Positions 1-40,931 are shown, counted from the stretch's first letter. The stretch: 64,000 nt of DNA from Escherichia coli (GCF_003790525.1 NZ_CP033635.1), one strand, 5' to 3'. The notes: generated by a model from the letters alone, not told the origin. A program made the numbers and translations.

Positions 1-482
1 AACTGTGTGCCCTTGATGACGTCGGTCATGCCGGAATAGGTGGCCCCCAGTAATTCGAGACCTTCTTCTTTCCGGAGGATATCGAGCACTTCCAGTTCGC
101 CGTGAACCCGGGCTTCCACATAGGTGAAGTCCGTGTTGTCGCGTCCTGGTGTGATATGCAGATCTGAGGCATCCAGTTGAGCGGCTTTTCTGATGTAATC
201 AAGAACTTTTCTTTGTACTGTGTTGATCCCTCCGTCGGATAAAACGCCCGGTGCACGTTCCGTATTATTGCTGTTCAGGGTTGCGATAACGTCAAGAGTG
301 GTAAAATCGAATTTGCTGATTTTTCCCGGATAGCGGGAGCGTAAGAGCGTCAGGTAACGTTGTACAGAGGTGATGTGCTTCTTCGCCTCGACGACTTTCA
401 CCCTGATTTTTCCGTCAGCGTCATGCTGAATTGCGACGAAATCACGAATATCTTCAGGAGGCAGTTCGATAGTCTCTGGCAT
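1..482 (-). CDS. pilQ: Type IVB pilus assembly ATPase, GspE/PilQ-like, N-terminal 160 aa only (runs off window)
   Basis: Hand translation from ATG at 482 stays open to position 1 (MPETIELPPEDIRDF...); contains ASDLHITP, close to the GspE/PilB-family SDIHIEP motif; follows pilP in R64-like order. Confidence 0.55.
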   Translation of the reverse strand, partial: MPETIELPPEDIRDFVAIQHDADGKIRVKVVEAKKHITSVQRYLTLLRSRYPGKISKFDFTTLDVIATLNSNNTERAPGVLSDGGINTVQRKVLDYIRKAAQLDASDLHITPGRDNTDFTYVEARVHGELEVLDILRKEEGLELLGATYSGMTDVIKGTQ

Positions 483-491
483 GATGGCACC

Positions 492-953
492 TCACGGGCG
501 TAGCGTCTGCCTGTTGCCGTTGTATTCCAGAATCACACTGTCCGGTGTGATTTGTTCCACCATGAACAGTGTACCGGGTAATGCCTGTCCGGCCCTGACA
601 TCAGTTTCAGTTCCTCCGGGGAGTATGACGCGTGCTGAAAGCTGTGGCTGAATACCAAAGATTTCTTTCAGACGGGGGGATGAAAATGCCTGTGAACCGG
701 AGGAGGTGCCAGCCGCATTTTCCGGCTGATGTCCCGTGACAGAACCGGAAACCGGGGAGATACCCTGTTCCAGTGTCCGCAATTCATGACGAATTTTTTC
801 TCTTGCCAGCATCGCTTCATACAGGGCGGTTTCTTCCTGAATCTGCTCAATCTGCAGTTGTTTGTTCTGTGACGCGTCATTTTCGTTGCCGGCCACTGCC
901 ATTGCCGGTAACAGCAGGGCTGCAATCAGCAGCGCTTTTGTTTTATCGTGCAT
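492..953 (-). CDS. pilP: Type IVB pilus protein PilP-like (signal peptide)
   Basis: ORF 492..1160; likely start at internal Met giving MHDKTKALLIAALLLPAMAVAG signal peptide (about 153 aa); overlaps pilO end; position in operon. Confidence 0.45.
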   Translation of the reverse strand: MHDKTKALLIAALLLPAMAVAGNENDASQNKQLQIEQIQEETALYEAMLAREKIRHELRTLEQGISPVSGSVTGHQPENAAGTSSGSQAFSSPRLKEIFGIQPQLSARVILPGGTETDVRAGQALPGTLFMVEQITPDSVILEYNGNRQTLRP

Positions 954-2241
954 AATATTTACCTGTGAACTGATAACGGAAACGACCATTTTCCAGTTGT
1001 CTTGTGACAGAGAGAAAACGGACAGATGGCTCGCTGAAGCGCTCTGCCAGCTGGTTAGCCGGGAGTAGCGTCTGTATCTGCAGGTCATACTCTTTCCACG
1101 GTGGCTGGATGATGTTTCCGTTTTCATCAGTGAAGCTGTTATTGACTTCCTGCCAGTCAATCTGCAGTTGAACTGACTGTGCGAGCGTGGTCAGTCGTTC
1201 CTGCAGGTCTCGGGTTTCCGGAAGGGAATCAACCGGGACAGGATTATCCGGGAGCCGGAATGTGACCGGCAGTGCAACGCCGCCAGAGTTCCCTTCAGGC
1301 ATAACAATAAACGGCCGGGTGTCTGTGAGTTCAGTGATGCGCCGGATGAAGGCTGTCACTGTCGTGCCTGCTGTATTGGTGTATGAAGACCGCAGATTAC
1401 CGCTGTTACCGTCAGTAGAACATTCAGCCAGGGTATAACGCCATCCGGCAGCAGACAGTGGCGTCTGGTTCCATGTTGTGCTGCATTGCCGGATAAATTC
1501 TCCGCTCTCAGGCTGCCTCGTCCATGGTGGCGTTATACGTGCTTCAGCTGCTTTCCGGGCGCTTTCTTCCCGTTCCGCTTTTTCCGCCTGCCAGATTTCA
1601 TAACGTTGCCAGCCGTACCACGATGCGCCAAGCAGCGTGATGATGAGTAAGGCTGTCATTAACTGTGGGCCTCTGGACACGGGGAGCAGACGCGCTTCTG
1701 CCGGATGCTTTCTGGTGCTGATCAGGTTTGACAGCGGTAGCGGGATACACCGACTGTCTGGTGAAAAACCGTCAGGTTCGTAGCGTACCCAGCCGTTTTC
1801 CGGTTCCGCATTGAGCATCAGGAACGTGTTGCGGGCTTCCGTGATTTCAGTCGGGGTACCGGTAACGTCGTTAACCAGAATGCCATTAATCACCGATACA
1901 AACGCACAGGTGAGTTCAGCGTCGTCGTTCTCGATGATGAAAATGGCATACCCACCTGATTTGAGTAGCGGGCGTATTAACATTGCCAGTGACAGGCACT
2001 GGCGAATGTTACGGGGGATATCTGCATCCTGACGACTGAGCAGGGCAATCATCATTTCATCACCGTTTTCACCGTCGTGGTTGTGGCAGGAAAGATACAG
2101 TTCTGCGCCCTGTGACCGGGCAAACCGCCGGGCATTCCGGTAACCGGGAGGTATGCTCTTCCAGTCAAGGCCCGCAAGGAATGCCTGTTTACCCGATATC
2201 AGTGAAACCGGACGAATTTTTTTCTGCATTGACCCGTTCAA
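943..2241 (-). CDS. pilO: Type IVB pilus biogenesis protein PilO-like
   Basis: 432-aa ORF with one internal hydrophobic segment; size and position between secretin and pilP match R64 PilO (about 431 aa). Confidence 0.5.
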   Translation of the reverse strand: MNGSMQKKIRPVSLISGKQAFLAGLDWKSIPPGYRNARRFARSQGAELYLSCHNHDGENGDEMMIALLSRQDADIPRNIRQCLSLAMLIRPLLKSGGYAIFIIENDDAELTCAFVSVINGILVNDVTGTPTEITEARNTFLMLNAEPENGWVRYEPDGFSPDSRCIPLPLSNLISTRKHPAEARLLPVSRGPQLMTALLIITLLGASWYGWQRYEIWQAEKAEREESARKAAEARITPPWTRQPESGEFIRQCSTTWNQTPLSAAGWRYTLAECSTDGNSGNLRSSYTNTAGTTVTAFIRRITELTDTRPFIVMPEGNSGGVALPVTFRLPDNPVPVDSLPETRDLQERLTTLAQSVQLQIDWQEVNNSFTDENGNIIQPPWKEYDLQIQTLLPANQLAERFSEPSVRFLSVTRQLENGRFRYQFTGKYYAR

Positions 2242-2252
2242 GGGAACCTCCG

Positions 2253-3878
2253 TCAGATTACGTGCGGTGTGATCAGCACAACCAGAATGGTGTCATCGTC
2301 ACCGCTGTCAGTGCCGCCACCCAGCCCGAAGAATGCCGGGCTGCCGACGCCCTGGCGCACGGATTTGCTGCCGGACTGCCGGAATCCGCTGAGAATGACG
2401 GTCTGACCTGATTTCAGGTCGATGGTCTGGTTGATGGTTTTCAGGTCTACCGTGGGCACCTGTGCCCGGCTGCCGCCGCTCTCGAACACCTCAAAGGTGG
2501 GTTTGTCGGAGAGGTTCATGCTGAAGAGCAGCTGCAGGCTGCGCGCATCCGGCTGAATGAACGGCAGCAGGGTCATGTTGAAGCCGGTGGTGATGGTGGC
2601 GGCGTTCAGGGAGGTGCTGGTCCCGACGTTGGCCGTGGTGTCGGTGGTGACACCTTCGATATAGCCCTGCTGGCTGGCCACCTGCATGGGCACCGGCGTC
2701 ATGTTTTTGGTGACGGCGGAGTTCTGTGTGACCACGCTGACGGTGCCCTGACTGGAGAGCGCCTTCAGGAAGGCCTTCGAGCCGGTGAGCTTACCGTCCA
2801 CAATGGAGACGCCACTGGTGATGATGTCATCGGCGGCACTGCTGAATGCCCCTCCCAGCGTGAGGCCGAGACGTCCGTCGCTGAAGACGGCATTCCAGTC
2901 AATGCCGGCCTGGTCACGGCGGGTTTTTCTGACGCTGAGGACTTCCACGTTCAGCACCACCTGACGTCGCATCTCGCGGTTACGTGCCTCCACAAAACGG
3001 CTGACGGTGTCGAGGACCCGAGGGGTGTCGGTGACGGTGAGAAAGCCGGTGGCAAGCACCATCCGGCCGGTCCCGGGGGTCAGCATGGCACCGACGGCAT
3101 TTTTCAGGTCCTCATAGAGGGTGGACTTCATGTCGACCGTGGTGGTCTGGGTGTTGCTGGCCTCCCCGCTGAGGGTGCCGGCGTTACTGCCGGTACTGCT
3201 GCCGGATGAGGAGGAGGCGGTGCCGCTGACCACCCGGGCGTTGTAGGTCACCTGAGAGTCCATGTAGGTGACCGGGAAGGTGCGTGTCTCCAGCCAGTAA
3301 AAGGTGATGGCGCGCCGGTCACTGTCGTAACGGTACGAGATACCGAGCCGGGAGGCGACGGTATCCAGCAGCTGCCGCAGCCCGGTGGCGCTGAGTTCCG
3401 GCAGGACGGCACCGCCGCCCGGGGGGATGACCTGTGCGCCACTGCCGACGGCGGCCAGCGGCACCATGCCGTTCGGGTCCGGTGCGGGGATTGCGCCTGT
3501 CAGCTGCTGTGTGGGGCCGGTGGTGGCCAGCGCCTGCCAGACGTCGGCGGTGATGGTCACGGGGATACCGCAGCTTCCGGTGATGCGCTGGGCTATCTGC
3601 CGCAGGCTGATATCCCGGCGGGTGTTGATGATGATGGGGCAGCCCGGCAGGCTCTGGTGTGCGGGGCTGACGCTGACAGGGGAGGGGTTGATCCACTGTC
3701 GCGTGGTCTCCGTGACCACCGGCCGGGATTTACGGAGTTCGCCCGCGTGCCGGCGCGCTTTCTCCAGTGTGGCGGTGGCGTCTTTTTCCGTGTTGCTGAT
3801 ACGTTCGGCCGTACCGCAGCCTGACAGCAGCAGGGCGACGGCAGTCAGTGGCAGGAGCATGTGTTGTCTTTTTTTCAT
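2253..3878 (-). CDS. pilN: Type IVB pilus secretin lipoprotein PilN-like
   Basis: Start at 3878 gives MKKRQHMLLPLTAVALLLSGC (lipobox LSGC) preceded by an AAGGA RBS; C-terminus ...TILVVLITPHVI is secretin-like; about 541 aa. Confidence 0.7.
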   Translation of the reverse strand: MKKRQHMLLPLTAVALLLSGCGTAERISNTEKDATATLEKARRHAGELRKSRPVVTETTRQWINPSPVSVSPAHQSLPGCPIIINTRRDISLRQIAQRITGSCGIPVTITADVWQALATTGPTQQLTGAIPAPDPNGMVPLAAVGSGAQVIPPGGGAVLPELSATGLRQLLDTVASRLGISYRYDSDRRAITFYWLETRTFPVTYMDSQVTYNARVVSGTASSSSGSSTGSNAGTLSGEASNTQTTTVDMKSTLYEDLKNAVGAMLTPGTGRMVLATGFLTVTDTPRVLDTVSRFVEARNREMRRQVVLNVEVLSVRKTRRDQAGIDWNAVFSDGRLGLTLGGAFSSAADDIITSGVSIVDGKLTGSKAFLKALSSQGTVSVVTQNSAVTKNMTPVPMQVASQQGYIEGVTTDTTANVGTSTSLNAATITTGFNMTLLPFIQPDARSLQLLFSMNLSDKPTFEVFESGGSRAQVPTVDLKTINQTIDLKSGQTVILSGFRQSGSKSVRQGVGSPAFFGLGGGTDSGDDDTILVVLITPHVI

Positions 3879-3940
3879 GCAGAAATCCTTGTGTGAAACG
3901 TGAAAACAGTGAGCAGAGCAGGGAGGGCAGAAGCGCTTCG

Positions 3941-4012
3941 GGACTGAAGTCTGCGCGTGATGGCGATATATCCGCGGGACATGACCGCGGCCGGATATGC
4001 AGACTTCAGTCC
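3941..4012. promoter_or_regulatory. Nested inverted-repeat structure in pilM-pilN intergenic region
   Basis: Perfect 14-bp inverted repeat GGACTGAAGTCTGC (3941-3954) / GCAGACTTCAGTCC (3999-4012) enclosing inner inverted repeat ATATCCG / CGGATAT and CCGCGG palindromes. Confidence 0.5.
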
Positions 4013-4067
4013 ACAGGCTCCTCACACTGTGCGGGACAGCGAAGGTTAACGGTGCAGTGATGTCCCG

Positions 4068-4505
4068 CTAGTTGAAATAAACAAATGCGCTGTCAGGAAT
4101 GACGGACGGCACGCTGATACCGGTGTCCTGACCTGTGGTGTTCAGCAGTCGCCGCCCCTTCACCCGGCCTGCCAGCGCGGTTTTGTGGGTGATGTCTGCC
4201 AGCGCACCTGCAAGCCCCGGGCGGTCATCCTGCCAGACAAAGACCCGCTGTCCGGCGATGATATGGCGGGTACCGTATACCGGGCGGAAACCCGTGGCGG
4301 TGACGGGGAGCGTGCCACCCCCCGTGCGCTCAGCCGGATGGGTGTACAGCCGGTCGTTAATGCCGTTCATGAGGCGGACCATCTCCCACGCACGTTCACG
4401 CATCTCCGCCTGCTCGCTGTACACGGTGACCCGGTGGGTACTGCTGTTGTGAAACCAGGTCAGCGCCACGGTCAGGGCCATGACCAGGGAGAGCGACCAG
4501 CCCAT
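4068..4505 (-). CDS. pilM: Type IVB pilus protein PilM-like
   Basis: Start at 4505 (MGWSLSLVMALTVALTW, N-terminal hydrophobic) lies 2 nt after the pilL stop; 145 aa, same length as R64 PilM. Confidence 0.45.
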   Translation of the reverse strand: MGWSLSLVMALTVALTWFHNSSTHRVTVYSEQAEMRERAWEMVRLMNGINDRLYTHPAERTGGGTLPVTATGFRPVYGTRHIIAGQRVFVWQDDRPGLAGALADITHKTALAGRVKGRRLLNTTGQDTGISVPSVIPDSAFVYFN

Positions 4506-4507
4506 GG

Positions 4508-5233
4508 TCAGTCTCCCGGTCTGTCGCTGACGTGCACCACACACTGCGTGCTGTTGATGGCTGCATACAGCGGCGTCTGTGCGTCCTGATAGAGACGGAA
4601 GAGTTCACTGAGCGCGTGGCGGAACTCGCCGGTGAAATGCAGCGGCGCATCGATGCTGTAATTGAGTCCGGGGTTCTGCCAGGCCAGCTGCCAGGTGCCA
4701 CCGGCCTGACAGGGAACGGCGGCCACCCACTGCTCAAGACCGGCACGCAGCAGGGTTCCGCGGGCAAGAGTCCAGGTGGTCCGTGCATGCGCCGGTTGCG
4801 GCATGTTTGCTGATTTTTCCGCGGTTTTTTCCTGCAGACTGGTGGTGCCCGGGGTGGCCTGAGACGGACTGAACAGGGTGTTCCGCTCAATACGTACATG
4901 CTTCTTCTCCGTGTCGGTGATGGCGCGGAGCTGATATTTTTTCAGCATGCGTTCCGTAACGTAATTCCACTGGTCATTTCCCTTCCATGACACCGTGCGG
5001 GGCGGCCTGACATCCGGTGCAATGTCAAATGTCCATCCCGGCGGTATCAGTTGCTGCATGGCTTTTTTCAGTGATAACCCTTTACCGTCCCGGGGAATAA
5101 ATTTCAGTGCTCCCGGAGCGCTGCTGACCGTGGACGATGAGGGTGCACTGACCTGAGAAGGTGACGGTGCAGCAAAAAGTGGAACAGAAAATGCCAGCAG
5201 CGGCACAATAAGAAGTGGTTTCAGTGGTGTCAT
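4508..5233 (-). CDS. pilL: Type IVB pilus protein PilL-like (secreted)
   Basis: 241-aa ORF with signal peptide MTPLKPLLIVPLLAFSVPLFA; second gene of the minus-strand operon. Confidence 0.45.
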   Translation of the reverse strand: MTPLKPLLIVPLLAFSVPLFAAPSPSQVSAPSSSTVSSAPGALKFIPRDGKGLSLKKAMQQLIPPGWTFDIAPDVRPPRTVSWKGNDQWNYVTERMLKKYQLRAITDTEKKHVRIERNTLFSPSQATPGTTSLQEKTAEKSANMPQPAHARTTWTLARGTLLRAGLEQWVAAVPCQAGGTWQLAWQNPGLNYSIDAPLHFTGEFRHALSELFRLYQDAQTPLYAAINSTQCVVHVSDRPGD

Positions 5234-5285
5234 ATTATGGTCCTGTATCGCACATTTTTTGTGTTTCCTGAGCCTGTATCCGGTT

Positions 5286-5504
5286 TTATTCCGGCTGAAC
5301 TCTGCTGCATGAGAATGCGGTGACGTTCACTTTCACACTGAACGATTTACCGGCCTCTTTTTCTTTTAAAAACAGCCTGACGCATTCAGGCTCAGTCATC
5401 GGTGTGTTCTGAAAACGCACCCAGGATACCGGTGCACCACCAGGCTTCAGGATGGTGGCTTCAATCCGGTATTTATGCGGTGTGGTGTCTGTTGTTGCTG
5501 TCAT
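5286..5504 (-). CDS. Small hypothetical protein (72 aa), first gene of the pil operon
   Basis: ATG at 5504 preceded by AGGAG at about 7 nt; no recognisable domain. Confidence 0.35.
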   Translation of the reverse strand: MTATTDTTPHKYRIEATILKPGGAPVSWVRFQNTPMTEPECVRLFLKEKEAGKSFSVKVNVTAFSCSRVQPE

Positions 5505-5512
5505 TCATGGCT

Positions 5513-5580
5513 CCTGTTGCCGGTTTCCGGTCCCGGAAAAACAGGCGACATCAGCAACAAGGGGAAAAACGCGATGTCGC
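5513..5580. promoter_or_regulatory. Palindrome cluster upstream of pil operon (candidate operator / oriT-related site)
   Basis: CCTGTT...TTTCCGG-TC-CCGGAAA...AACAGG (5513-5545) and 8-bp inverted repeat GCGACATC / GATGTCGC (5545-5580). Confidence 0.35.
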
Positions 5581-6030
5581 CTGAAAGGTACTGGTGCAGC
5601 GGTGCGTTGTACGGACGCAGGTCCGCACAACCGGAAATACACGGGATGATTCGGTCAGTGTATTTTCGTGTTGTGCGCCTGTACTGATACGGCAGGGTGT
5701 GATGAGTGTTACCTGTGGCTGCAGGCGCGGCACGTCACTCATAACGTAGCATTCTGTTTCCTCCTCAGCCCGGCTTCAGGGCGTTGCCGCAATACCCGAT
5801 TGTTAAAGAGCCTTACCGGCATGGTGTCCGGTGTCACCGCGCGGATAACGATACGGCGGTGTCTGAAGGGATGATGCTGCGGCGCTCTGCACATGGCGAC
5901 GATTAATTCTTTTTGTGTTTCTGAAAATTTATTGCCGGGAAATTTCTGGTGTGACAGGGTGAATTAATTCTGGTCAGCGACGCTCCTGAGAAGGCAGAGT
6001 GCGCTGACATTTCGTGAACGGAGGAATGCC

Positions 6031-7539
6031 ATGTCCCTGAATCCCACCGATGAACAGTCAGCCATCATTCACTGGCAGGGGGAAAAACTGGTGGTGAATG
6101 CCTTTGCCGGTACAGGCAAAACCAGCACACTGGTGCAGTTCGCCGCAGCCTGCCCTGAGAGCCGGATGCTGTATCTGGCCTATAACCGCGCGATTCGTGA
6201 TGAGGCGGAGCGCCGGTTTCCCTTTAATGTGGAGTGCAAAACCTCCCATCAGCTGGCGTATTCGCGGTTCGGAAAGCATTTCCGGCATCGTCTGGTGCCG
6301 GGGCTGTCAGTGACGGATGTAGCGAGAAAACTGAACACCCGCTACTGGACGCTTGCCCGTGTTGCCATGACCGCGCTGAATCAGTTCATCTGTTCGGCGG
6401 ACGTGGCGCCCGGAATGCAGCATATGCCGCCTCCCGACGAGATGAAGGGCATGTCGCCACAGGATGCGCTGCGTGCCGTGCAGATCCTCTGGCATGAAAT
6501 GAGCAATCCGGATGGCAATTTTCCGGTCACTCACGACACCTATCTGAAGCTCTATCAGCTTTCCTCACCGGATCTGTCACGCAGGTGGGATACGATCCTT
6601 TTTGATGAGGCCCAGGATGCGAATCCGGTGACGTCCGCACTGGTGCTGGGGCAGCGGTGCAGGGTGGTACTGGTTGGCGACCGTTACCAGCAGATTTATC
6701 GTTTTCGTGGTGCCAGCGATGCACTGTCGCATCCGGCACTGAACGGGGCGGACCGTCTCTGGCTGACGCAAAGTTTTCGTTTTGGTCCTGCCGTGGCCGG
6801 GGTGGCCAGCCAGTTACTGAAGCGTGCCGGCGAGAGCCGTGAGGTGACCGGCAGGGGCGGGGATGATGAAGTGCTGACGGCAGGTGAAATGCGTGCGCGC
6901 GTGAAGGCAGGGAAGATGACCGGTCACAGGGCGATACTGAGCCGGACGGTGGCCGGTGTGATTGGCACGGCACTGATGGCGGCAATGCGTGGCAGGAAGG
7001 TTTACTGGGTGGGGGGCATTGAAGGCTACAGAACGGAAGCACTGGAAGATCTTTACTGGTTTCAGATGGACATGCCGGAGCGGATGCACAGTGACAGACT
7101 GCGAAAGGACTACCGGAGTTTTGACGAGTACCGTCATATTGCGAAGGTGACGAAGGATGTGGAAATGAATCAGTCCATTCGTCTGCTGGAGCTGTGCTTT
7201 CCGCTGCCGAAGAAACTCGAACTTCTCAGAAAGCACACCGTCACGAATGAACAGGAGGCGGATATCACGGTCTCAACGGCACACCGCAGTAAGGGACTGG
7301 AGTGGGCACTGGTGATACTCGATGATGATTTTCAGGATATCACCGACCCGCTGATAAGCGAGCAGGAGCGGCGTGATGAAACCAATCTGCTCTATGTGGC
7401 GGTCACCCGGGCGCGCAGAACGCTGGTTCTCAATGAGCTCATGCAGCAACTGACGGAAGCTGCCGGCGATGGTGGTGCACCCGGAAACGCGCCGGTGCAG
7501 GGGAAGGAAGACGATGGCGTGGAGGGAGAGGATGTTTAA
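6031..7539 (+). CDS. SF1 (UvrD/Rep-like) DNA helicase
   Basis: 502-aa ORF; Walker A AFAGTGKTS; ILFDEAQD Walker B-like; C-terminal VSTAHRSKGLEW and LLYVAVTRAR motifs typical of UvrD_C; GGAGGAA RBS before the ATG. Confidence 0.75.
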   Translation: MSLNPTDEQSAIIHWQGEKLVVNAFAGTGKTSTLVQFAAACPESRMLYLAYNRAIRDEAERRFPFNVECKTSHQLAYSRFGKHFRHRLVPGLSVTDVARKLNTRYWTLARVAMTALNQFICSADVAPGMQHMPPPDEMKGMSPQDALRAVQILWHEMSNPDGNFPVTHDTYLKLYQLSSPDLSRRWDTILFDEAQDANPVTSALVLGQRCRVVLVGDRYQQIYRFRGASDALSHPALNGADRLWLTQSFRFGPAVAGVASQLLKRAGESREVTGRGGDDEVLTAGEMRARVKAGKMTGHRAILSRTVAGVIGTALMAAMRGRKVYWVGGIEGYRTEALEDLYWFQMDMPERMHSDRLRKDYRSFDEYRHIAKVTKDVEMNQSIRLLELCFPLPKKLELLRKHTVTNEQEADITVSTAHRSKGLEWALVILDDDFQDITDPLISEQERRDETNLLYVAVTRARRTLVLNELMQQLTEAAGDGGAPGNAPVQGKEDDGVEGEDV

Positions 7540-9157
7540 GCGGTTCAGACGTATGCTGCCCGGCACAAAGGTCACGGAGCCAGGCGTGGTCGCGCCGGTG
7601 ATACCGGCAGGGTTTTATGCGCCGCTCACAGCAGAAGCACTGTTATCACCAGAGCACAGGGAACTGAGGCTCAGGCAGGTATGGGATAACAATCCGATGC
7701 CCCGTGATGTATACGACAGGATGTGCCTTGCGCCACTCAGCCGGCTGTTGCTGAACACCCAGAATGTGCCGGCAACACGGGAAGGACGGTGGTCCCGTGC
7801 CGGTGGATTTGGTGATCTGACGGTACTGTACACCACGTATGCCGTTCGTCTGGCAAGAGGGTACATGTTTCCACCGGATGCGACCCCGGAAGACCAGGCG
7901 GCTCAGGCCGCAGTCTGGCATACGGTGATTTTCTGGTCAGCGCTGTTTTACCACCTGCCCCTGCTGGCGCACCTTGAGGGGGAGCTGCTGAGTGGTCGGG
8001 GCTGGCAGCCAGGGATTTCTGTGCCTGACGAACCTTTCCGTTTCCGGTTCAGGAAGACGGCGCCGCAGGGCACGGAAGCGCAACAACTGGCGGCCCTGAC
8101 TGCCGGCACGCTGTTACCGGACGGCGCAACGGCCTGGCTTGTGACGGCGCCGGGGGCGCTGCAGAATCTGGCCGGGGCGCTCTGGCATCAGCATCCCGGG
8201 ATGGCGCTGATTCGTGATGTGCTGCAGGAAGCGGCAAGGCAGACAGAGAGTCCGCTGAATACCTGCGCTGTCACTGCGCCGGTTACTGCGGAGGCTTCAG
8301 CAGACATCCGTCCTGCTGACCCGGTGGTGACCGGCAGCACGGACAGTGTGATGGCAGTCACTGAGGTGCAGCCGGCAGAGGAGGTGAAGACTGAGAGCGT
8401 GCAGACAGAGACTGAAGGTGGTGGTGAGTCCGCCGGAGCGTCAGAGGTGCCGTCCGCACAGCAGGAACTGACGGTTCAGACAGCGCCAGTGGTGACGGCA
8501 GATGATGAAGCGGTCAGTGCTTCTCCTGCGGATCAGGACACAGCAATGCTGCTGAGTCTTTTTTCAGCAGATGAGTCCGAAACTGCTGAACGGGATAATG
8601 GGGATGTGGTGATGCTGGCTGATGAGGAAGAAGCGCAGGATCTCACCGATGGACCGGATGAAGGCGATTCGTCTCCGGGCAGTATTCATGAATCGCCGTA
8701 TCTGGTGGAGAGTGACGCGTCGGTTAATCAGTCCGTATCCGGGGAATACCGCGCAACAGAAGTGAATCCGCTTACCGGAGATGATCCTGATTTAAAGGGA
8801 GAGACGTTTTTGGACTGGCTTAAAGCAGGGCTGAACAGTGGTGAGATATCATTTAACCAGAAAGGCGACAAAATACACATTGTTGCAGGACTGGTTTTCC
8901 TGCCGGTACCAGGCATTTTCTTTGATTACCTGAAAGCAGTGCAGCTTCCCGGGGACAAACGCCCGATTGTTCAGTCATCATTTGAGCGGCTCTGTATCAA
9001 TAAACGCCGTGATGACCAGCGTTTTTATTTTGCTCGTATTGCTGAGGAACCCGGGAACTGTGCACGTTACAAAACAGTCAAAGGTTACCTGGTCAAAGGA
9101 CGTAGTCTGATGCATGAAAGTAAACTGAAAGACAGTCCTTATCTTTTTATTTCGTGA
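7514..9157 (+). CDS. Putative conjugative relaxase (TraI_2 / MOBH-like) with acidic low-complexity linker
   Basis: ORF 7469..9157; start chosen at ATG 7514 (AAGGAAG RBS), overlapping helicase stop; C-terminal segment (IHIVAGLVFLPVPGIFFDYLK...) resembles TraI_2_C; family assignment is from memory. Confidence 0.5.
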   Translation: MAWRERMFKRFRRMLPGTKVTEPGVVAPVIPAGFYAPLTAEALLSPEHRELRLRQVWDNNPMPRDVYDRMCLAPLSRLLLNTQNVPATREGRWSRAGGFGDLTVLYTTYAVRLARGYMFPPDATPEDQAAQAAVWHTVIFWSALFYHLPLLAHLEGELLSGRGWQPGISVPDEPFRFRFRKTAPQGTEAQQLAALTAGTLLPDGATAWLVTAPGALQNLAGALWHQHPGMALIRDVLQEAARQTESPLNTCAVTAPVTAEASADIRPADPVVTGSTDSVMAVTEVQPAEEVKTESVQTETEGGGESAGASEVPSAQQELTVQTAPVVTADDEAVSASPADQDTAMLLSLFSADESETAERDNGDVVMLADEEEAQDLTDGPDEGDSSPGSIHESPYLVESDASVNQSVSGEYRATEVNPLTGDDPDLKGETFLDWLKAGLNSGEISFNQKGDKIHIVAGLVFLPVPGIFFDYLKAVQLPGDKRPIVQSSFERLCINKRRDDQRFYFARIAEEPGNCARYKTVKGYLVKGRSLMHESKLKDSPYLFIS

Positions 9158-9210
9158 GTGGAGGGGAGGCTATTATTGCAGGAATGTGAATGAAATGTAA
9201 AAGGTAATCA

Positions 9211-10200
9211 ATGAAAATAAATAATGCGGATAAGTGCTGGAATGATTTGATGGATGAGTTTTTTTTCTGCCGTTCAGTACGTGAAGCTACGGAGTGGAGC
9301 TACAGAAAGGTGCTGAACGGATTCCGTAAGTTTGTTGGCGGGACTCTGTTACCGGAAGATATCCGACAACAACATGTCAGGGAGTGGCGACGGGAGGTCC
9401 TGAAAAACCAGAAACGTTCAACTCATACATGGAACAACAAGGTACGCCATATGCGCGCTATCTTCAGTTTTGCTTCCTCATCTGAACTCCTGCATTTAAG
9501 TTGTAACCCGTTTGAGGGTATGAGCGTCAGACAGGAAAAGAAACGCAAAAAAACACTGACCCGGAAACAAATAAAACGCATCCTGCTGGTCCTTGAGCAG
9601 TTTCAGGAGGATGAAATGAACCTGAAGATGCACTGGAAGTGCGCCATTCGTCCGGCCTGGTACTGGATTATTGTGGTTAACACACTTCGCTTTACGGGGA
9701 TGAGGCTGAATCAGCTGCTGCATCTGCGCCTGCGGGATGTTAATCCTGAAGAACGGTGGATTGATTTATGCTCTGAAGGCAGCAAGACACATCATGAGTG
9801 GCGGATCCCGATGGTCAGTCATCTGGTTCCGGGGATAACCAGGCTGATGGATGAAGCGGTGAAACGTGGAGCCACGCCTGATGATTATCTTTTCCACTAT
9901 CATCGCTATGCTTTGCCTGTGTCTGAAGCATTATCGGTGAGCGGACCTCCGGAAGAGCAGAAGGTCAAAGGTTTTTTCCGGCGTCTGTCGAAAGAGTGTG
10001 GTTTTCAGGTATCTGCACATCGTTTCAGACACACTCTGGCAAGTACTCTGATGGCGGCACCGGAACGAAATCTGTACATGGTGAAAACCATGCTGGGTCA
10101 CCGGAATGTTTCAACGACACTGGAATATGTGGAGATGGATCTGAAGGGAACAGCACGTATACTTGAGGCCGAACTGTCAAAACTGACAGACGATCTTTAA
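9211..10200 (+). CDS. int: Tyrosine recombinase / integrase (329 aa)
   Basis: RBS AAGGTAA; catalytic-looking residues in LRFTGMR, HRFRHT, GHRNVSTT and LEYVE (R, H-x-x-R, H, Y); adjacent to tRNA-Phe 3' end. Confidence 0.85.
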   Translation: MKINNADKCWNDLMDEFFFCRSVREATEWSYRKVLNGFRKFVGGTLLPEDIRQQHVREWRREVLKNQKRSTHTWNNKVRHMRAIFSFASSSELLHLSCNPFEGMSVRQEKKRKKTLTRKQIKRILLVLEQFQEDEMNLKMHWKCAIRPAWYWIIVVNTLRFTGMRLNQLLHLRLRDVNPEERWIDLCSEGSKTHHEWRIPMVSHLVPGITRLMDEAVKRGATPDDYLFHYHRYALPVSEALSVSGPPEEQKVKGFFRRLSKECGFQVSAHRFRHTLASTLMAAPERNLYMVKTMLGHRNVSTTLEYVEMDLKGTARILEAELSKLTDDL

Positions 10201-10396
10201 TCAGGTGATTGCTTACAGTTGTTGACAACATGAAAAACCGTTGCAATCATAATGAATGATCGAGAAAGGGAGCATGCGACCAACATGCTCCCCAATCGAG
10301 AAAATGAGATGGCATGACCTAGACTCACGACATCTTGCACCTTCCCGATGACACCCGTCAGGGTTCTCACTCCTGACCAGTGGCTTTGATGTAAGG

Positions 10397-10472
10397 TGGT
10401 GCCCGGAGGCGGAATCGAACCACCGACACGGGGATTTTCAATCCCCTGCTCTACCGACTGAGCTATCCGGGC
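10397..10472 (-). tRNA. pheV: tRNA-Phe (GAA), pheV locus, variant T-stem
   Basis: Reverse complement reads GCCCGGATAGCTCAGTCGGTAGAGCAGGGGATTGAAAATCCCCGTGTCGGTGGTTCGATTCCGCCTCCGGGCACCA; matches E. coli tRNA-Phe except four compensatory T-stem changes. Confidence 0.9.
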
Positions 10473-19057: not shown

Positions 19058-19140
19058 GCCTGATGTGCTACGCTTATCAGGCCTATAAAGATGCACGATC
19101 GAGTAGGCTGGATAAGGCGTTTACGCCGCATCCGGCATGG
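19058..19140. repeat. REP/BIME element (two REP units)
   Basis: GCCTGATGTGCTACGCTTATCAGGCCTA and GGCTGGATAAGGCGTTTACGCCGCATCCGGCA palindromic units typical of E. coli REP. Confidence 0.8.
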
Positions 19141-19208
19141 AAAACGCGCACTTTGTTATCAATCTGGGGCCAGCAAATGCTGGCCTGATTTGTTCTTGAG
19201 GGAAGACT

Positions 19209-19928
19209 ATGATGCGCAAAATGCTGCTGGCGGCAGCACTTTCAGTGACGGCAATGACCGCTCACGCCGACTACCAGTGCAGCGTCACGCCGCGTGACGA
19301 TGTGATTGTCAGCCCGCAAACCGTGCAGGTGAAGGGCGAAAACGGCAATCTGGTGATCACGCCAGACGGCAACGTGATGTATAACGGTAAGCAATATTCC
19401 CTGAATGCCGCCCAGCGCGAGCAGGCGAAGGATTATCAGGCTGAACTCCGTAGCACCCTGCCGTGGATTGATGAAGGCGCGAAAAGCCGCGTCGAGAAAG
19501 CCCGTATTGCGCTGGATAAAATTATCGTTCAGGAGATGGGCGAAAGCAGCAAAATGCGCAGCCGTCTGACCAAACTTGATGCGCAGCTGAAAGAGCAGAT
19601 GAACCGCATTATCGAAACGCGCAGCGATGGCCTGACGTTCCACTATAAAGCCATTGATCAGGTTCGCGCCGAAGGCCAGCAATTAGTGAATCAGGCAATG
19701 GGCGGAATTTTACAGGACAGCATTAATGAAATGGGCGCGAAAGCGGTGCTGAAAAGCGGTGGTAACCCATTACAGAATGTGCTGGGAAGCCTGGGCGGTC
19801 TGCAATCCTCAATCCAAACCGAATGGAAAAAGCAGGAAAAAGATTTCCAACAGTTTGGCAAAGATGTTTGTAGCCGCGTTGTGACTCTGGAAGATAGTCG
19901 CAAAGCCCTGGTCGGGAATTTAAAATAA
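19209..19928 (+). CDS. yggN: DUF2884 periplasmic protein YggN
   Basis: 239 aa with signal peptide. Confidence 0.85.
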   Translation: MMRKMLLAAALSVTAMTAHADYQCSVTPRDDVIVSPQTVQVKGENGNLVITPDGNVMYNGKQYSLNAAQREQAKDYQAELRSTLPWIDEGAKSRVEKARIALDKIIVQEMGESSKMRSRLTKLDAQLKEQMNRIIETRSDGLTFHYKAIDQVRAEGQQLVNQAMGGILQDSINEMGAKAVLKSGGNPLQNVLGSLGGLQSSIQTEWKKQEKDFQQFGKDVCSRVVTLEDSRKALVGNLK

Positions 19929-20103
19929 TCCTCTATTTTAAGACGGCATAATACTTTTTTATGCCGTTTAATTCTTCGTTTTGTTACCTGCCTCTAACTT
20001 TGTAGATCTCCAAAATATATTCACGTTGTAAATTGTTTAACGTCAAATTTCCCATACAAAGCTAAGGGATAATGCGTAGCGTTCACGTAACTGGAGGAAT
20101 GAA

Positions 20104-21150
20104 ATGGAGTTTTTCAAAAAGACGGCACTTGCCGCACTGGTTATGGGTTTTAGTGGTGCAGCATTGGCATTACCCAATATCACCATTTTAGCAACCGGCG
20201 GGACCATTGCCGGTGGTGGTGACTCCGCAACCAAATCTAACTACACAGCGGGTAAAGTTGGCGTAGAAAATCTGGTTAATGCGGTGCCGCAACTGAAGGA
20301 CATTGCGAACGTTAAAGGCGAGCAGGTAGTGAATATTGGCTCCCAGGACATGAACGATGATGTCTGGCTGACACTGGCGAAAAAAATTAACACCGACTGC
20401 GATAAAACCGACGGCTTCGTCATTAACCACGGTACCGACACGATGGAAGAAACCGCTTACTTCCTCGACCTGACGGTGAAATGCGACAAACCGGTGGTGA
20501 TGGTCGGCGCAATGCGCCCGTCCACGTCCATGAGCGCAGACGGTCCATTCAACCTGTATAACGCGGTAGTGACCGCAGCTGATAAAGCCTCCGCTAATCG
20601 TGGCGTGCTGGTGGTGATGAACGACACCGTACTGGACGGTCGCGATGTCACCAAAACCAACACCACCGACGTAGCGACCTTCAAGTCTGTTAACTACGGT
20701 CCTCTGGGATACATTCACAACGGTAAGATTGACTACCAACGTACCCCGGCACGTAAGCACACCAGCGATACGCCATTCGATGTCTCTAAGCTGAATGAGC
20801 TGCCGAAAGTCGGCATCGTTTATAACTACGCTAACGCATCCGATCTTCCGGCTAAAGCACTGGTAGATGCGGGCTATGATGGCATCGTTAGCGCTGGTGT
20901 GGGTAATGGTAACCTGTATAAATCCGTGTTCGACACCCTGGCAACCGCTGCGAAAAACGGCACTGCAGTCGTGCGTTCTTCCCGCGTACCGACGGGCGCT
21001 ACCACTCAGGATGCTGAAGTGGATGATGCAAAATACGGCTTCGTCGCCTCTGGCACGCTGAACCCGCAAAAAGCGCGCGTTCTGCTGCAACTGGCTCTGA
21101 CGCAAACCAAAGATCCGCAGCAGATCCAGCAGATCTTCAATCAGTACTAA
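20104..21150 (+). CDS. ansB: L-asparaginase II (periplasmic)
   Basis: 348 aa; signal peptide; conserved TGGTIAG motif. Confidence 0.95.
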   Translation: MEFFKKTALAALVMGFSGAALALPNITILATGGTIAGGGDSATKSNYTAGKVGVENLVNAVPQLKDIANVKGEQVVNIGSQDMNDDVWLTLAKKINTDCDKTDGFVINHGTDTMEETAYFLDLTVKCDKPVVMVGAMRPSTSMSADGPFNLYNAVVTAADKASANRGVLVVMNDTVLDGRDVTKTNTTDVATFKSVNYGPLGYIHNGKIDYQRTPARKHTSDTPFDVSKLNELPKVGIVYNYANASDLPAKALVDAGYDGIVSAGVGNGNLYKSVFDTLATAAKNGTAVVRSSRVPTGATTQDAEVDDAKYGFVASGTLNPQKARVLLQLALTQTKDPQQIQQIFNQY

Positions 21151-22274: not shown

Positions 22275-22329
22275 CTCATGTTAAGTGCCTTTGCCGGATA
22301 ATATAAAAAGTTATCCGGCAAATTATTTT

Positions 22330-23631
22330 TTACATTAGCCCTAGTAGCTGTGGAATGAACAAGGATATTTGCGGGATGTAAGTGATCATCATCAACGCGA
22401 TTAACAATGCGGCATAAAATGGCAGCAATGGTTTGATCAAATGTTGAATCTTCACACCTGAAATAGAACAACCAACAAATAGCGCACTACCCACCGGCGG
22501 TGTTAACAGCCCAATACAAAGGTTAGCCACCATCATAATACCGAAATGTACCGGATCCATTCCCAGCTCTTGTGCAATCGGCAAGAAGATTGGTGTGAAG
22601 ATTAGTACAGCTGGTGTCATGTCCATAAAGATGCCGACAATTAATAAGACGATATTAATCAGCAGCAATATGACCAGTGGGTTATCAGAAATCCCCATCA
22701 ACGCGTCGCTGATCATATAAGGAATATCAGCATTGGTCATTGCCCAGGACATGCCCACGGAAAAACCGATCAACAGTAATACAATCGAAGTGGTAACAAC
22801 TGATTCCAGAATCAGTTTGGGTAAATCGCGCCATTTTACTTCCCGGTAAATCAGCACCGAGAGAATAAATGTGTAGACAACGGCAATCGCAGACGCTTCA
22901 GTTGCGGTAAAAATGCCGCCCAGAATGCCGCCCATCACAATGAACACCAGAAGCAAACTTGGTAAGGCATCCAGAAACGCTTTACAGGCCTGAGCGAAGG
23001 TTGCTCTTTCTGAAAGCGGGTAGCCACGGCGTTTAGCAATAATGCCGCAGACTATCATTACCGCGAGACCCATTAAGATCCCTGGCAAATATCCCGCCAT
23101 AAATAATGATGCTACAGAAACGCCGCCAGCTGTCAGGGAAAACACAATTAACACGTTTGAGGGCGGTATCAGTAATCCAGTAATACAAGATGAGACGTTT
23201 ACAGCGGTAGAAAATGCCGGATCATAACCTTCTTTGGTCTGAATGGGATTCAGTGTGCCACCAACGGCAGCAGCTGCCGCAACGGCTGAACCAGAAATGG
23301 AACCAAACATCATATTCGCCAGGACGTTCACATGACCAAGCGAACCAGGAACGCGGCCAACCATTACCTGGGCGAGGTTAATCAAGCGTATCGCAATACC
23401 GCCGCTGTTCATCAGCGTTCCGGCAAAGATGAAAAAGGGGATTGCCAATAGGGCAAAGTTATCCAGTCCATTAGCCAGTCGCTGCGAAACAGTGATTGCC
23501 GCGATATCCCAGGGAAACATCAAAAGCATTGAAGCTACAGTGGCAATACCGATTGAGAACGAAATGGGCACACCAATAAAGACCAGCACAAAAAAACAGC
23601 CAAATAGTGTAAGCGCGATATAACTATCCAT
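22330..23631 (-). CDS. TRAP transporter large permease (DctM family)
   Basis: 433-aa polytopic membrane ORF; forms operon with DctQ/DctP-like genes. Confidence 0.8.
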   Translation of the reverse strand: MDSYIALTLFGCFFVLVFIGVPISFSIGIATVASMLLMFPWDIAAITVSQRLANGLDNFALLAIPFFIFAGTLMNSGGIAIRLINLAQVMVGRVPGSLGHVNVLANMMFGSISGSAVAAAAAVGGTLNPIQTKEGYDPAFSTAVNVSSCITGLLIPPSNVLIVFSLTAGGVSVASLFMAGYLPGILMGLAVMIVCGIIAKRRGYPLSERATFAQACKAFLDALPSLLLVFIVMGGILGGIFTATEASAIAVVYTFILSVLIYREVKWRDLPKLILESVVTTSIVLLLIGFSVGMSWAMTNADIPYMISDALMGISDNPLVILLLINIVLLIVGIFMDMTPAVLIFTPIFLPIAQELGMDPVHFGIMMVANLCIGLLTPPVGSALFVGCSISGVKIQHLIKPLLPFYAALLIALMMITYIPQISLFIPQLLGLM

Positions 23632-24143
23632 TAACTGGCCTCCTGCGCAGGTTGTTTCAGTTGTTGAATGCTTTGATTAATAAAACACAAGGCATAAAAC
23701 ATCATCACCACTCCACTTAATGGCAGAATGATATATACGTATCCCATCGGTATTTGCATAGCGGCAGATACTTGTGATGTTGCCAGCGTTTTATCAATTA
23801 ATTTCAGGCCACCAGTCACAATGACCGAACCGGCAAAACCTAAAATGAGAATGTTAATGACTATACTAAGAAGTAATTGCTTGCGCTTATTCAGGGCGAG
23901 AGCAAATAAATCGATAGAGAGATGTCTCTGCGCGCCGACGGTATATGCAGCACCTAATAATCCTACCCAGATCATCAAAAAGCGTGCCAGCTCATCGGTT
24001 AATGTACTTGGCTGGTTAAGTACGTAGCGGCTAAATACTTGCCAGACTACGCATACAACCAGAGCAAGCATGACGGCGACAGAAAACGCGGCAATGACGC
24101 GGTCTACCGCAAGTTTCAGGCGGTTAAATATCATTGTAAGCAT
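23631..24143 (-). CDS. TRAP transporter small permease (DctQ family)
   Basis: 170 aa, four hydrophobic segments; start overlaps the DctM ATG. Confidence 0.75.
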   Translation of the reverse strand: MLTMIFNRLKLAVDRVIAAFSVAVMLALVVCVVWQVFSRYVLNQPSTLTDELARFLMIWVGLLGAAYTVGAQRHLSIDLFALALNKRKQLLLSIVINILILGFAGSVIVTGGLKLIDKTLATSQVSAAMQIPMGYVYIILPLSGVVMMFYALCFINQSIQQLKQPAQEAS

Positions 24144-24178
24144 CCTGGAAAATCAGGGCCAGAGACTGGCCCGAAATA

Positions 24179-25165
24179 TTATTGAGCAGCGTTATCGAAT
24201 TTCTCTAACAAAGCAGCTTGTTTTGGATCTTTTTTGAAGTCGTCAAACAGAGGTTGAACTGCGGCACGGAATGGGGCTTTATCAACCTTAACGATTTCAC
24301 CACCCATAGCTTTCGCCTGAGCACGTGTGTCAGCGTCAATTTTTTCCCACAATTTTTGTTGATAAGCTTCGGATTTCTTCGCCGCTGTTTCGAGGATTTG
24401 TTGCTGTTCTGGGGTTAATTTATTCCATGTTTTGGTGGAGATAACCAAAAAGTCAGGAATTGAGGCGTGTTCATCTTCAGAAAAGACTTTGGCAATTTCG
24501 ATATGTCGAGTCTGCACCCAGGAAGGTACATTATTTTCTGCTCCATCCACTACGCCTTGTTGCATCGCAGTATAAACTTCGCCAAATGAAATTGGAGTGG
24601 GTGAGCCACCCATCAGTTCAATCATTTTGATGGTGGTCGGGCTTGGCTGAACACGAATTTTCAGCCCTTTAAGATCTTCTGGCTTAGTAATCGGTTTTTT
24701 CGCATAGAAACTGCGTGTACCCGCTACATAAGCTGATAAAGCAAAAAAGCCTTTGTCTTTTGTTGAGTCCATAATTTCTTTACCAACTTCACCAAAAACC
24801 ACTTTGTTGAAGTGCACCTGATCTTTAAATAAGAACGGCAAATTATAGATAGCATAAATATTATCAAAAGACTCCAGATCACTGGCGGAACCTTTGGTCA
24901 TATCCAGTGCGCCATTTTGCAACAATTCCATAGTTTCTCGCGCATTACCCATCTGGCTGCTGGGATAAATACGGATCACCATATTACCTTTTGACAGCTG
25001 TTTTACCTCTTTCGCCAGCTCTTCAAAACTCTGATGTACAACATGACTTCTTTCCAGGTTGTGTGCTAACTTTAACGTCACTTTTTCTGCGGCGTTTACG
25101 CCAGTGCTAACCAGAGCCAGCAAGGATGCGCAGACTAATGAGCGGGTAAATGACCTCATTTTCAT
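24179..25165 (-). CDS. TRAP transporter substrate-binding protein (DctP/SiaP-like)
   Basis: 328 aa with signal peptide; motifs YPSSQMG, AGTR (carboxylate-binding Arg) and GSPTPISFGEVY resemble SiaP-type binding proteins. Confidence 0.8.
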   Translation of the reverse strand: MKMRSFTRSLVCASLLALVSTGVNAAEKVTLKLAHNLERSHVVHQSFEELAKEVKQLSKGNMVIRIYPSSQMGNARETMELLQNGALDMTKGSASDLESFDNIYAIYNLPFLFKDQVHFNKVVFGEVGKEIMDSTKDKGFFALSAYVAGTRSFYAKKPITKPEDLKGLKIRVQPSPTTIKMIELMGGSPTPISFGEVYTAMQQGVVDGAENNVPSWVQTRHIEIAKVFSEDEHASIPDFLVISTKTWNKLTPEQQQILETAAKKSEAYQQKLWEKIDADTRAQAKAMGGEIVKVDKAPFRAAVQPLFDDFKKDPKQAALLEKFDNAAQ

Positions 25166-25376
25166 AAAAAAACTCCCTGTTGAAGGATGGAAATTGGTTG
25201 ATATCTAATTGTGCTTATCAGTGCTTTGTGCGACAAATTGGTTAACCTGTCTGACAACTTGTCTATGTTTATCACAACTTGAAATAAAGTCAGAAATTAA
25301 ATATTAAATTTGTGCGCCAGGTTGTACATGTTTATAATCAATAAATGATGAGTAAATATTCACTAAATATATATAA

Positions 25377-25395
25377 TAAATATCGTCGATATTTA
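25377..25395. promoter_or_regulatory. 19-bp palindrome in TRAP operon upstream region (candidate operator)
   Basis: TAAATATCG-T-CGATATTTA, perfect palindrome about a central base, in the AT-rich 312-bp region upstream of the DctP-like gene. Confidence 0.4.
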
Positions 25396-25477
25396 TTCAG
25401 TAAGAAATATATTTTTGCCGAAGTTAATTAACGGGGGGTAAAAGAAGTGATTAATGCGCCCGCAGGCGCATTAATGA

Positions 25478-39987: not shown

Positions 39988-40004
39988 TTAAGATTATTCC
40001 GCTG

Positions 40005-40045
40005 GCGGGTCGATTTATTTACGTAAATCGGCCCGCTTTCTTTTT
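40005..40045 (+). terminator. Rho-independent terminator after speA
   Basis: 13-bp imperfect stem GCGGGTCGATTTA / TAAATCGGCCCGC followed by TTTCTTTTT. Confidence 0.7.
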
Positions 40046-40864: not shown

Positions 40865-40931
40865 CAACCTCGCTTGATGCCTCGTCCATTTAAGGCGATA
40901 ATTAGCGCAAACTTGTGTTTCGCAAATCCAA

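Follow-up and report, generated by a model that had tools for sequence, protein, structure and literature searches.

The right end of a probable ICEEc2-type integrative and conjugative element in the tRNA-Phe gene pheV of Escherichia coli

Genes and features at the pheV locus

The stretch of DNA analyzed in this study, hereafter referred to as the window, comprises 64,000 nucleotides of the genome of Escherichia coli (GCF_003790525.1, NZ_CP033635.1). Its positions 1 to 10472 comprise a tRNA gene and, to the left of it, a block of genes which most probably represents the right end of an ICEEc2-type integrative and conjugative element (ICE). The sole tRNA gene of the window was identified by ARAGORN as a tRNA-Phe(GAA) gene at positions 10397–10472 on the minus strand, and its 3' end points towards the island. 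An Rfam scan of the whole window yielded this tRNA (69.1 bits) and nothing else. Because yqgA and speC adjoin the gene on its right side, as is the case at pheV in E. coli K-12 MG1655, it was assigned to pheV. This agrees with an earlier interpretation of the locus, referred to below as the sequence-only reading.

The element-side arm of the attachment site attR extends from position 10201 to 10396. It is followed by the gene of a XerC/D-like ('IntKX'-type) tyrosine integrase of 329 amino acids (9211–10200, plus strand; Pfam Phage_integrase, E 4e-20), the open reading frame (ORF) of which stops 196 bp short of the tRNA 3' terminus. Further to the left, and also on the plus strand, genes for a TraI-like protein of the MOBH3 clade (7532–9157; Pfam TraI_2 and TraI_2_C, TIGR03760) and for an intact UvrD-like superfamily 1 (SF1) helicase of 502 amino acids (6031–7539; Pfam UvrD-helicase, AAA_19, UvrD_C and UvrD_C_2) were detected. 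A tyrosine recombinase beside the tRNA 3' end and a UvrD-like helicase had both been predicted by the sequence-only reading, and both were recovered here. A divergent intergenic region with two stable hairpins (5505–6030) separates the helicase operon from the genes on the minus strand. The first of these is an intact small ORF of 72 amino acids (5286–5504), which belongs to the DUF1187 family according to the annotation of relatives and scored 91.3 bits with NF007283 (cutoff 92).

The leftward pil operon begins with pilL (4508–5233, minus strand, as are all genes of the operon), which encodes a TcpQ-family pilus biogenesis protein (Pfam TcpQ, E 6e-13). Downstream of it, pilM (4068–4544; Pfam PilM, E 8e-12) and the gene of the type IVb pilus outer-membrane secretin lipoprotein PilN (2253–3878; TIGR02520 415 bits, cutoff 288) are located, and the translation of the latter contains the lipoprotein signal LLSGC. 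These are followed by pilO (943–2229), coding for the type IVb pilus accessory protein PilO2 (Pfam PAP_PilO over the full length, E 5e-36), and by pilP (492–953), coding for a type IV pilus biogenesis lipoprotein (TIGR03021 pilP_fam 102 bits, cutoff 34.7). The RefSeq annotation of a relative supports the assignment of pilL, pilO and pilP. For pilN, pilO and pilP, the starts given by the ORF finder lie upstream of the likely true starts. At the left margin, the first 160 codons of pilQ (1–482), the gene of the GspE/PulE-type ATPase of the type IVb pilus, form an open frame, and the annotation of the 99.8% identical copy in strain FDAARGOS_1287 gives a GspE/PulE family protein. As the gene continues beyond position 1, the window contains only the 5' third of pilQ. 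The divergent pilL-M-N-O-P-Q operon described in the sequence-only reading is thus complete for pilL to pilP, but not for pilQ.

A PilN-family secretin lipoprotein, PilL, PilM, PilO and PilP and a PilQ ATPase encoded in one operon characterize type IVb pili of the PilL-V kind, which resemble the thin pilus of R64, and the operon of the window conforms to this type. PilR, PilS and PilU as well as the shufflon-system adhesin PilV with an adjacent site-specific integrase are annotated in relatives only. The G+C content is 0.65 over pilN, 0.47 over the integrase gene and about 0.51 in the flanking chromosome; the block is therefore compositionally mosaic.

Distribution and boundaries of the island

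When positions 1–10472 were compared by megablast to 5426 complete E. coli genomes, at least 80% of this 10.4-kb block was present in 36 of them, with identities of up to 99.8%. The best matches to the window were 99.8% identical in the island part and 99.6% identical across the junction, and none reached 100%. In K-12 the pheV site is empty, and no insert separates pheV from yghD.

The far end of the island is known from two near-identical relatives, FDAARGOS_1287 and 5CRE51 (99.5–99.8% over the 10.4 kb). Counted from the right end, the island measures 75,520 bp in FDAARGOS_1287 and 73,707 bp in 5CRE51, and in both strains the 3' half of pheV in its native form, 50 nt long, is exactly repeated at the far end. 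The sequence-only reading would have been undermined by genes occurring at this locus in essentially all E. coli genomes, or by a missing repeat of the tRNA 3' end to the left. The former is disproved by the 36 of 5426 genomes and the empty site of K-12, the latter by the repeat at 73.7 and 75.5 kb in the two relatives, and the interpretation as an island therefore stands. If the ICE is intact in the present genome, the reverse complement of GGGGATTGAAAATCCCCGTGTCCTTGGTTCGATTCCGAGTCCGGGCACCA (written as on the plus strand of the window) is expected 65–105 kb to the left, with parA on the island side.

Beyond the far end, the two relatives differ from each other, and each of them carries a P4-type integrase island or a remnant thereof. 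The ICE was therefore inserted between pheV and an older genomic island (GI-pheV). A reading of the block as a prophage or as a P4-type GI-pheV was rejected, since in the relatives the P4-type integrase island lies past the far end of the ICE, as its tandem neighbor.

Serial accretion at pheV, with the ICE in tandem with the older P4-integrase GI-pheV, was observed in both relatives (L002, FDAARGOS_1287, 19104–20288 and leftwards; L010, 5CRE51, 23273–24337). One of the older islands is intact and carries raffinose/sucrose-type sugar genes, and IS26 has truncated the other. RefSeq lists a 78-nt 'tRNA-Ser' at the far end of the ICE (L002 20465–20542 in FDAARGOS_1287; L010 24535–24612 in 5CRE51), which consists of the displaced native 50-nt 3' half of pheV and of ICE DNA starting with GCCCGTAAC. 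ARAGORN found no tRNA at this end in FDAARGOS_1287. This 'tRNA-Ser' is probably an annotation artifact, though the ICE end mimics a 5' acceptor strand.

The RefSeq gene set of the relatives' element comprises a replication and partition part with ParA, an SPI-7-type DnaB (DnaB-PI), ParB, members of the STY4528 and STY4534 families, topoisomerase III and the single-stranded DNA-binding protein SSB. The transfer part includes TraD, the ICE proteins TIGR03745–03759, a conjugative ATPase and TraG. In addition, ArdA, PilU, PilS, PilR and PilQ as well as the shufflon-system tip adhesin PilV are annotated, and the site-specific integrase adjoining pilV is presumably an Rci-type shufflon recombinase. 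The core of the MPF_G type IV secretion system (T4SS) and the ParA/DnaB-PI/ParB module thus lie outside the window and are known from the annotation of relatives that are 99.5–99.8% identical over 10.4 kb. Taken by itself, the window contains no T4SS genes but DNA-processing genes and a pilus operon. This would also fit a mobilizable island (integrative and mobilizable element, IME), which uses the secretion system of another element instead of being self-transmissible, an option that the sequence-only reading had allowed for. Such a reading is very improbable, because the near-identical relatives encode TraD, a VirB4-like ATPase, TraG and the TIGR037xx core inside the same element bounded by att repeats.

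Near-identical right ends were found beside yqgA, i.e. at pheV, in about 25 genomes, beside a tRNA-Phe gene without yqgA in four genomes including that of strain CH4804, and beside the alpha-amylase gene malS in strain 64.1. The presence of the same element at pheV, at a second tRNA-Phe site and at malS implies recent movement. Strain CH4804 possesses a 99.6% identical copy of the 10.4 kb. Its ICEs at pheV (113 kb) and pheU (99.9 kb) were both classed as conjugative (PMC13127887, supplement). Both were moved into MG1655 and drove an Hfr-like chromosome transfer, and a donor with an 'ICE in malS' was reported as well (PMC13127887).

These observations bear on the question whether the element might be a decayed, immobile remnant, in which the integrase, TraI, helicase and pil genes were kept and excision and transfer were lost in this genome. 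Remnants of this kind are known: SPI-7 of Salmonella Typhi and the copy in Yersinia pestis belong to them, and in locus L013 the helicase-TraI-integrase trio is flanked by IS66 and unrelated genes. Strain KE41 has the trio next to other neighbor genes and without an adjacent pil operon, FDAARGOS_1287 shows frameshifts in the helicase and ParB genes, and 10.4 kb are all that the window contains of the island. On the other hand, all ten genes in the window are intact, and the closest relatives (99.5–99.8%) possess a complete gene set of 74–76 kb with both att repeats. Furthermore, the element occupies three different sites in different strains, and the CH4804 ICEs are conjugative in experiments (PMC13127887). 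It is therefore unlikely that the element is a mere remnant, and an ICE with its right end in pheV is the preferred interpretation.

The hybrid tRNA gene, the attachment site and the integrase

The tRNA-Phe gene of the window differs from that of K-12 at four positions, all of which are located in the T-stem (10408–10409 and 10423–10424; GGTGG/CCGCC in comparison to the native CTTGG/CCGAG). The differences are compensatory, and this hybrid gene is still scored as a tRNA-Phe by ARAGORN and Rfam. The attR repeat comprises 50 nt (10397–10446) and has a second copy in the relatives in direct orientation. The displaced far-end copy in the relatives carries the native T-stem, i.e. the functional tRNA gene received the 3' half of the element and the native half was displaced. 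Over 22 bp, corresponding to positions 10425–10446 of the window and comprising the anticodon stem (3' strand) together with the variable loop, both copies are identical. The T-arm of the element in the functional tRNA and the native T-stem at the far end point to a crossover within this 22-bp anticodon-stem/variable-loop core, as judged from the product of recombination.

The 50-nt 3' half of the hybrid gene corresponds exactly to the native tRNA-Phe allele of many (marine) Gammaproteobacteria, and it is found in some Xenorhabdus, Pantoea and Erwinia as well. Since this 3' half is normal in other Gammaproteobacteria, the hybrid tRNA is expected to be functional. The donor of the T-arm carried by the element could not be identified from the distribution of the allele in the Gammaproteobacteria.

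The tRNA-Phe allele with the element-type T-arm occurs in 72 complete E. coli records, which is twice the number of those with the 10.4-kb end (36). Some of the carriers hold only distantly related integrases, for example strain 2013C-3033 with about 81% identity. The allele is therefore a marker of a broader group of related islands, or of the scars that such islands have left.

The divergent variants in NCTC9112 and KE41, the integrase junctions of which show about 85–87% identity, keep the native T-arm. With the window they share a near-invariant arm of 75 bp beside the tRNA, which is the last part of the attR arm, and a conserved palindrome with a 9-bp stem (10268–10292; folding z-score of the hairpin -5.8). 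It is likely that the 75-bp arm and the palindrome are binding sites of the recombinase or of accessory factors.

Strains MS1494, MS1737 and C5 match the window from about 45 bp past the tRNA 3' end (10351–10396, inside the attR arm), and megablast gave no match to the integrase in these three strains. These arm matches suggest further divergent family members or remnants at pheV.

The integrase showed its top NCBIfam matches to XerA, XerD and XerC, all of them under the respective cutoffs. Its residues R165, H270, R273, H297 and Y306 align with the catalytic residues of XerA (PDB 5HXY). It is thus a short XerC/D-like tyrosine integrase encoded at the att-proximal end. Hundreds of homologues with about 46–55% identity occur across the Enterobacterales, among them proteins of Klebsiella, Pantoea, Salmonella, Yersinia, Xenorhabdus and Serratia. 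The integrases of ICEEc2 and PAPI-1 were placed in the IntKX subgroup (PMC8138268), and the integrase of the window is likened to that of ICEEc2 by this description.

The helicase and the TraI-like protein

The helicase possesses intact motifs I (AGTGKT, 26), II (FDEAQD, 191), III (YRFRGA, 223), V (TAHRSKG, 416) and VI (VTRAR, 458). Its stop codon overlaps the start codon of traI (7532–7539), which suggests translational coupling. The trio of helicase, TraI and integrase with overlapping helicase and traI genes is kept in NCTC9112, in KE41, and in Y. pestis and a metagenome contig (TraI identities of 42% and 37%, respectively), and the best plasmid matches likewise pair TraI with a UvrD-like helicase. 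In ICEHin1056, which encodes a canonical MobH, no adjacent UvrD-like helicase was present. This conservation supports the notion that the helicase and TraI may be functionally coupled.

In the KE41 variant at pheV (L006, 1–7332), the trio is preceded directly upstream by an inverse autotransporter gene and by an Eco57I-type restriction-modification/methylase pair, not by a pil operon.

The TraI-like protein has a TraI_2 domain at its N-terminus and a TraI_2_C domain at its C-terminus (Pfam E-values of 2e-16 and 4e-16). It scored 193 bits with TIGR03760 ('ICE relaxase, PFGI-1 class', cutoff 161), but 73 bits with NF041494 (MobH, cutoff 200). When the N-terminal domain was compared to the MobH proteins of ICEHin1056 and of a Pseudomonas aeruginosa plasmid, GRW was found in place of HHH, GGFGDL in place of GGMLDH and YHL-P in place of HDIGK. 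An exhaustive HMMER search of 1.84 billion representative proteins retrieved only 255 clusters at E ≤0.001, and the motifs were tabulated for 92 long sequences, namely the window protein, the two reference MobH proteins and 89 search matches. Both the 3H and the HD motif are absent from the window protein and from 59 others, including every long match above about 31% identity, and both are kept in 29 canonical MobH proteins. In detail, nine residues without variation among the canonical proteins, H85, H86, H87, H96, H140, D141, D147, H183 and D235 (window numbering), correspond to G, R, W, L, Y, H, H, A and A in the window protein. Residues 85–87 thus read GRW instead of the alternative 3H motif (HHH), and all six ligands of the HD phosphohydrolase motif (H...HD...H...D; H96, H140, D141, D147, H183 and D235) are substituted. 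Scaffold residues are retained, namely P80, G91, G92, D95, P114, E120, W129, W158, R170 and W202. No invariant Tyr or His was found across the clade of TraI in the alignment.

An AlphaFold2 model of TraI residues 1–270 reached a pLDDT of 90.5. Its best match in the PDB is 3KQ5, the TraI_2 domain of a Coxiella protein (E 4e-5, TM 0.59), followed by the HD-domain nuclease YhaM. The link to 3KQ5 surfaced only via structure prediction; by sequence, the C-terminal domain alone gave a convincing PDB match (2IPQ, SPI-7 STY4665, E 2e-16). The middle part of TraI (residues about 250–420, window 8280–8790) is a long acidic linker of low complexity, which is rich in E, D, T, A and S and varies in length among the homologues. 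This agrees with the account of a disordered middle part in MOBH proteins (PMC6736028).

The prototype of the MOBH relaxases, TraI of the Neisseria gonorrhoeae genetic island (GGI), shows the same architecture of TraI_2, disordered middle and TraI_2_C, and it is the only biochemically characterized MOBH relaxase (PMC6736028). Cleavage by this protein is Mn2+-dependent and requires both its HD and its 3H motif (Heilers et al. 2019; PMC6736028), and the corresponding residues are all replaced in the window protein. The MobH proteins of ICEHin1056 and of Pseudomonas keep HHH and HD and are about 25–30% identical to the N-terminal domain of the window TraI. 3KQ5 and 2IPQ belong to MOBH3, a clade which lacks 3H and HD, and this was said to suggest 'an alternative function' (PMC6736028). 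The window TraI is a member of this clade, as defined by Garcillan-Barcia 2009 and described in PMC6736028; the loss of the motifs is hence already in the literature and is no discovery of this study. As TraI lacks every 3H and HD ligand, a role as the relaxase in nicking is not established. The sequence-only reading had proposed a TraI_2-type MOBH-like relaxase: the homology is borne out by TraI_2, TraI_2_C and TIGR03760, but the catalytic 3H and HD motifs are missing.

It is possible, albeit doubtful, that the MOBH3 protein is not a nickase but a DNA-binding or coupling-protein adaptor that works with the helicase, and that the origin of transfer (oriT) is cut by another enzyme, e.g. the XerC/D-like recombinase or another island protein. 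This would account for the replacement of all nine canonical 3H/HD positions, for the lack of an invariant Tyr or His and for the 'alternative function' proposed for MOBH3, and it would agree with the conservation of helicase, TraI and integrase as one module. On the other hand, the predicted fold of TraI and many of its scaffold residues are strongly conserved, which argues for a selected function on DNA, and no other relaxase-like gene is present in the RefSeq annotation of the relatives. ECA0613, a putative relaxase of the Pectobacterium island HAI2, is reported to be involved in mobilization, which would also speak against this reading if the protein belongs to MOBH3.

A related and similarly tentative idea is that the pair of helicase and 'dead-HD' TraI, followed by the XerC/D-like integrase, is a module which starts transfer without an HD/3H or HUH active site. 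TraI might then use an undescribed chemistry, or another nickase, possibly the tyrosine recombinase, might make the cut, with TraI loading the helicase or docking the DNA to the coupling protein. In the mobilization of SGI1, MpsA is reportedly a tyrosine-recombinase-like relaxase. That the nick is made by a protein other than TraI has a low but appreciable probability.

Hairpins in the intergenic region

The 526-bp divergent region (5505–6030) contains inverted-repeat hairpins at 5542–5583 and 5624–5677, with DNA folding z-scores of -6.4 and -5.3. The arms of these hairpins are conserved in the approximately 80% identical variant of NCTC9112, whereas the loops diverge. Upstream of the helicase genes of KE41 and Y. 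pestis no counterpart of the hairpins (5542–5677) was found; therefore, they were not called oriT. A scan of positions 5200–6100 for consensus promoters and terminators gave no more than expected by chance. Both hairpins are accordingly listed as candidates only, either for regulatory elements or for oriT.

Relationship to known ICEs and proposed mechanism

For elements of this kind, two papers (PMC13127887, PMC11537424) refer to ICEEc2 of the avian pathogenic E. coli strain BEN374 (Roche et al. 2010, J Bacteriol 192:5026). According to papers citing it, ICEEc2 is located at pheU or pheV, and its excision and transfer were reported; its pilus is described as serving mating-pair formation (PMC4458695). 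As far as these accounts go, ICEEc2 and the pheU/pheV ICEs of clinical E. coli strains in PMC13127887 share the host species, the target genes and the kind of type IVb pilus with the element of the window. Size and cargo differ by copy, with 74–76 kb in 5CRE51 and FDAARGOS_1287 and 100 and 113 kb in CH4804. The family name pKLC102/PAGI-2/PAPI-1 is used in the title of the ICEEc2 publication.

Integration into tRNA-Phe is also shared by SPI-7 (S. Typhi), YAPI (Yersinia pseudotuberculosis), ICEKp2 (Klebsiella pneumoniae), ICEPan (Pantoea) and HAI2 (Pectobacterium). The pilL-V operon is common to this enterobacterial branch, and integrase homologues with about 49–55% identity occur in Klebsiella, Pantoea, Salmonella and Yersinia. 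With regard to SPI-7, STY4665 matches the C-terminal domain of the window TraI, and the relatives carry the SPI-7-type DnaB and STY4528/STY4534. The branch differs from the present element in protein identities of only about 40–55% and in other cargo, and no viaB locus was found in the relatives examined. With PAPI-1, pKLC102, PAGI-2 and ICEclc (Pseudomonas) and ICEHin1056 (Haemophilus), the MPF_G archetypes, the element shares the general plan, with a tRNA gene as attB, a terminal integrase gene, ParA/DnaB/ParB at the opposite end and a TIGR037xx T4SS core. The Pseudomonas members use tRNA-Lys, unlike the element of the window. The assignment to the SPI-7/PAPI-1/pKLC102/YAPI family made in the sequence-only reading is thus backed by the gene content of the relatives, the integrase homologues, the STY4665 match and the literature on ICEEc2 at pheU and pheV.

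Taken together, it is very likely (probability about 0.93) that positions 1–10472 are the right end of an ICEEc2-type ICE of the pKLC102/PAGI-2/PAPI-1/SPI-7/YAPI family with MPF_G secretion, inserted in the 3' end of pheV. This kind of ICE has already been described, annotated and studied experimentally.

Several points weigh against this interpretation. Only the right end lies in the window, and the completeness and activity of the island in this genome are not visible. In some relatives, the helicase and ParB genes are frameshifted. The likeness to ICEEc2 of BEN374 is drawn from the descriptions in citing papers. TraI is devoid of all 3H and HD ligands that are essential for nicking by the GGI TraI. 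Finally, no oriT was identified, and KE41 and Y. pestis lack the hairpins of 5542–5677 at the corresponding position.

For an ICE at pheV of this type, the following mechanism may be proposed. The XerC/D-like integrase, which is presumed to be the responsible enzyme, would recombine the 3' half of pheV or pheU with attP, in which a tRNA-Phe 3' half is present as a 50-nt copy. After excision, the pair of helicase and TraI would process the DNA, which would then be exported by the T4SS encoded further left, beyond the window; both steps are suggested by synteny and by the genetics of relatives. The PilL-V type IVb pilus, the first six genes of which lie in the window, may stabilize mating pairs, as is reported for ICEEc2 in the sources cited above. 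Close relatives can also start the transfer while still integrated and thereby drag the chromosome along in an Hfr-like manner, as demonstrated for the CH4804 ICEs. The nicking step is the weak link of this scheme, since TraI keeps the fold of the MOBH relaxase domain and none of the metal ligands.

The window shows a clean and intact right end with a hybrid tRNA-Phe gene that marks the region of the crossover, and it reveals no new principle. ICEs of this kind move among pheV, pheU and occasionally malS, and in some strains they carry resistance or virulence cargo. According to a study of 2026 (Mol Biol Evol, PMC13127887), such ICEs can transfer extensive portions of the E. coli chromosome to recipients, which gives rise to hybrid, fluoroquinolone-resistant clones. 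The locus also bears on the identity of the nicking enzyme in the enterobacterial branch, where none of the known catalytic ligands is left in TraI; this question has already been flagged in the literature, and the locus is genetically tractable for it.

The flanking core chromosome

To the right of pheV, the window contains the core chromosome of E. coli (speC through yggE), which is 96.5–99% identical to that of 5CRE51. Five segments of the window are absent from 5CRE51, namely 22275–25477, 39988–40922, 41922–43720, 46748–47999 and 53364–56630. Among their contents are an ORF of 243 amino acids and one of 520 amino acids, neither of which had a match in NCBIfam. Besides, these segments encode an SPFH/HflC-like protein and two transporters, one of the DctP/DctM-type TRAP kind and one of the ECF type, the latter comprising two ATPases and an S component of the CD3073 family.

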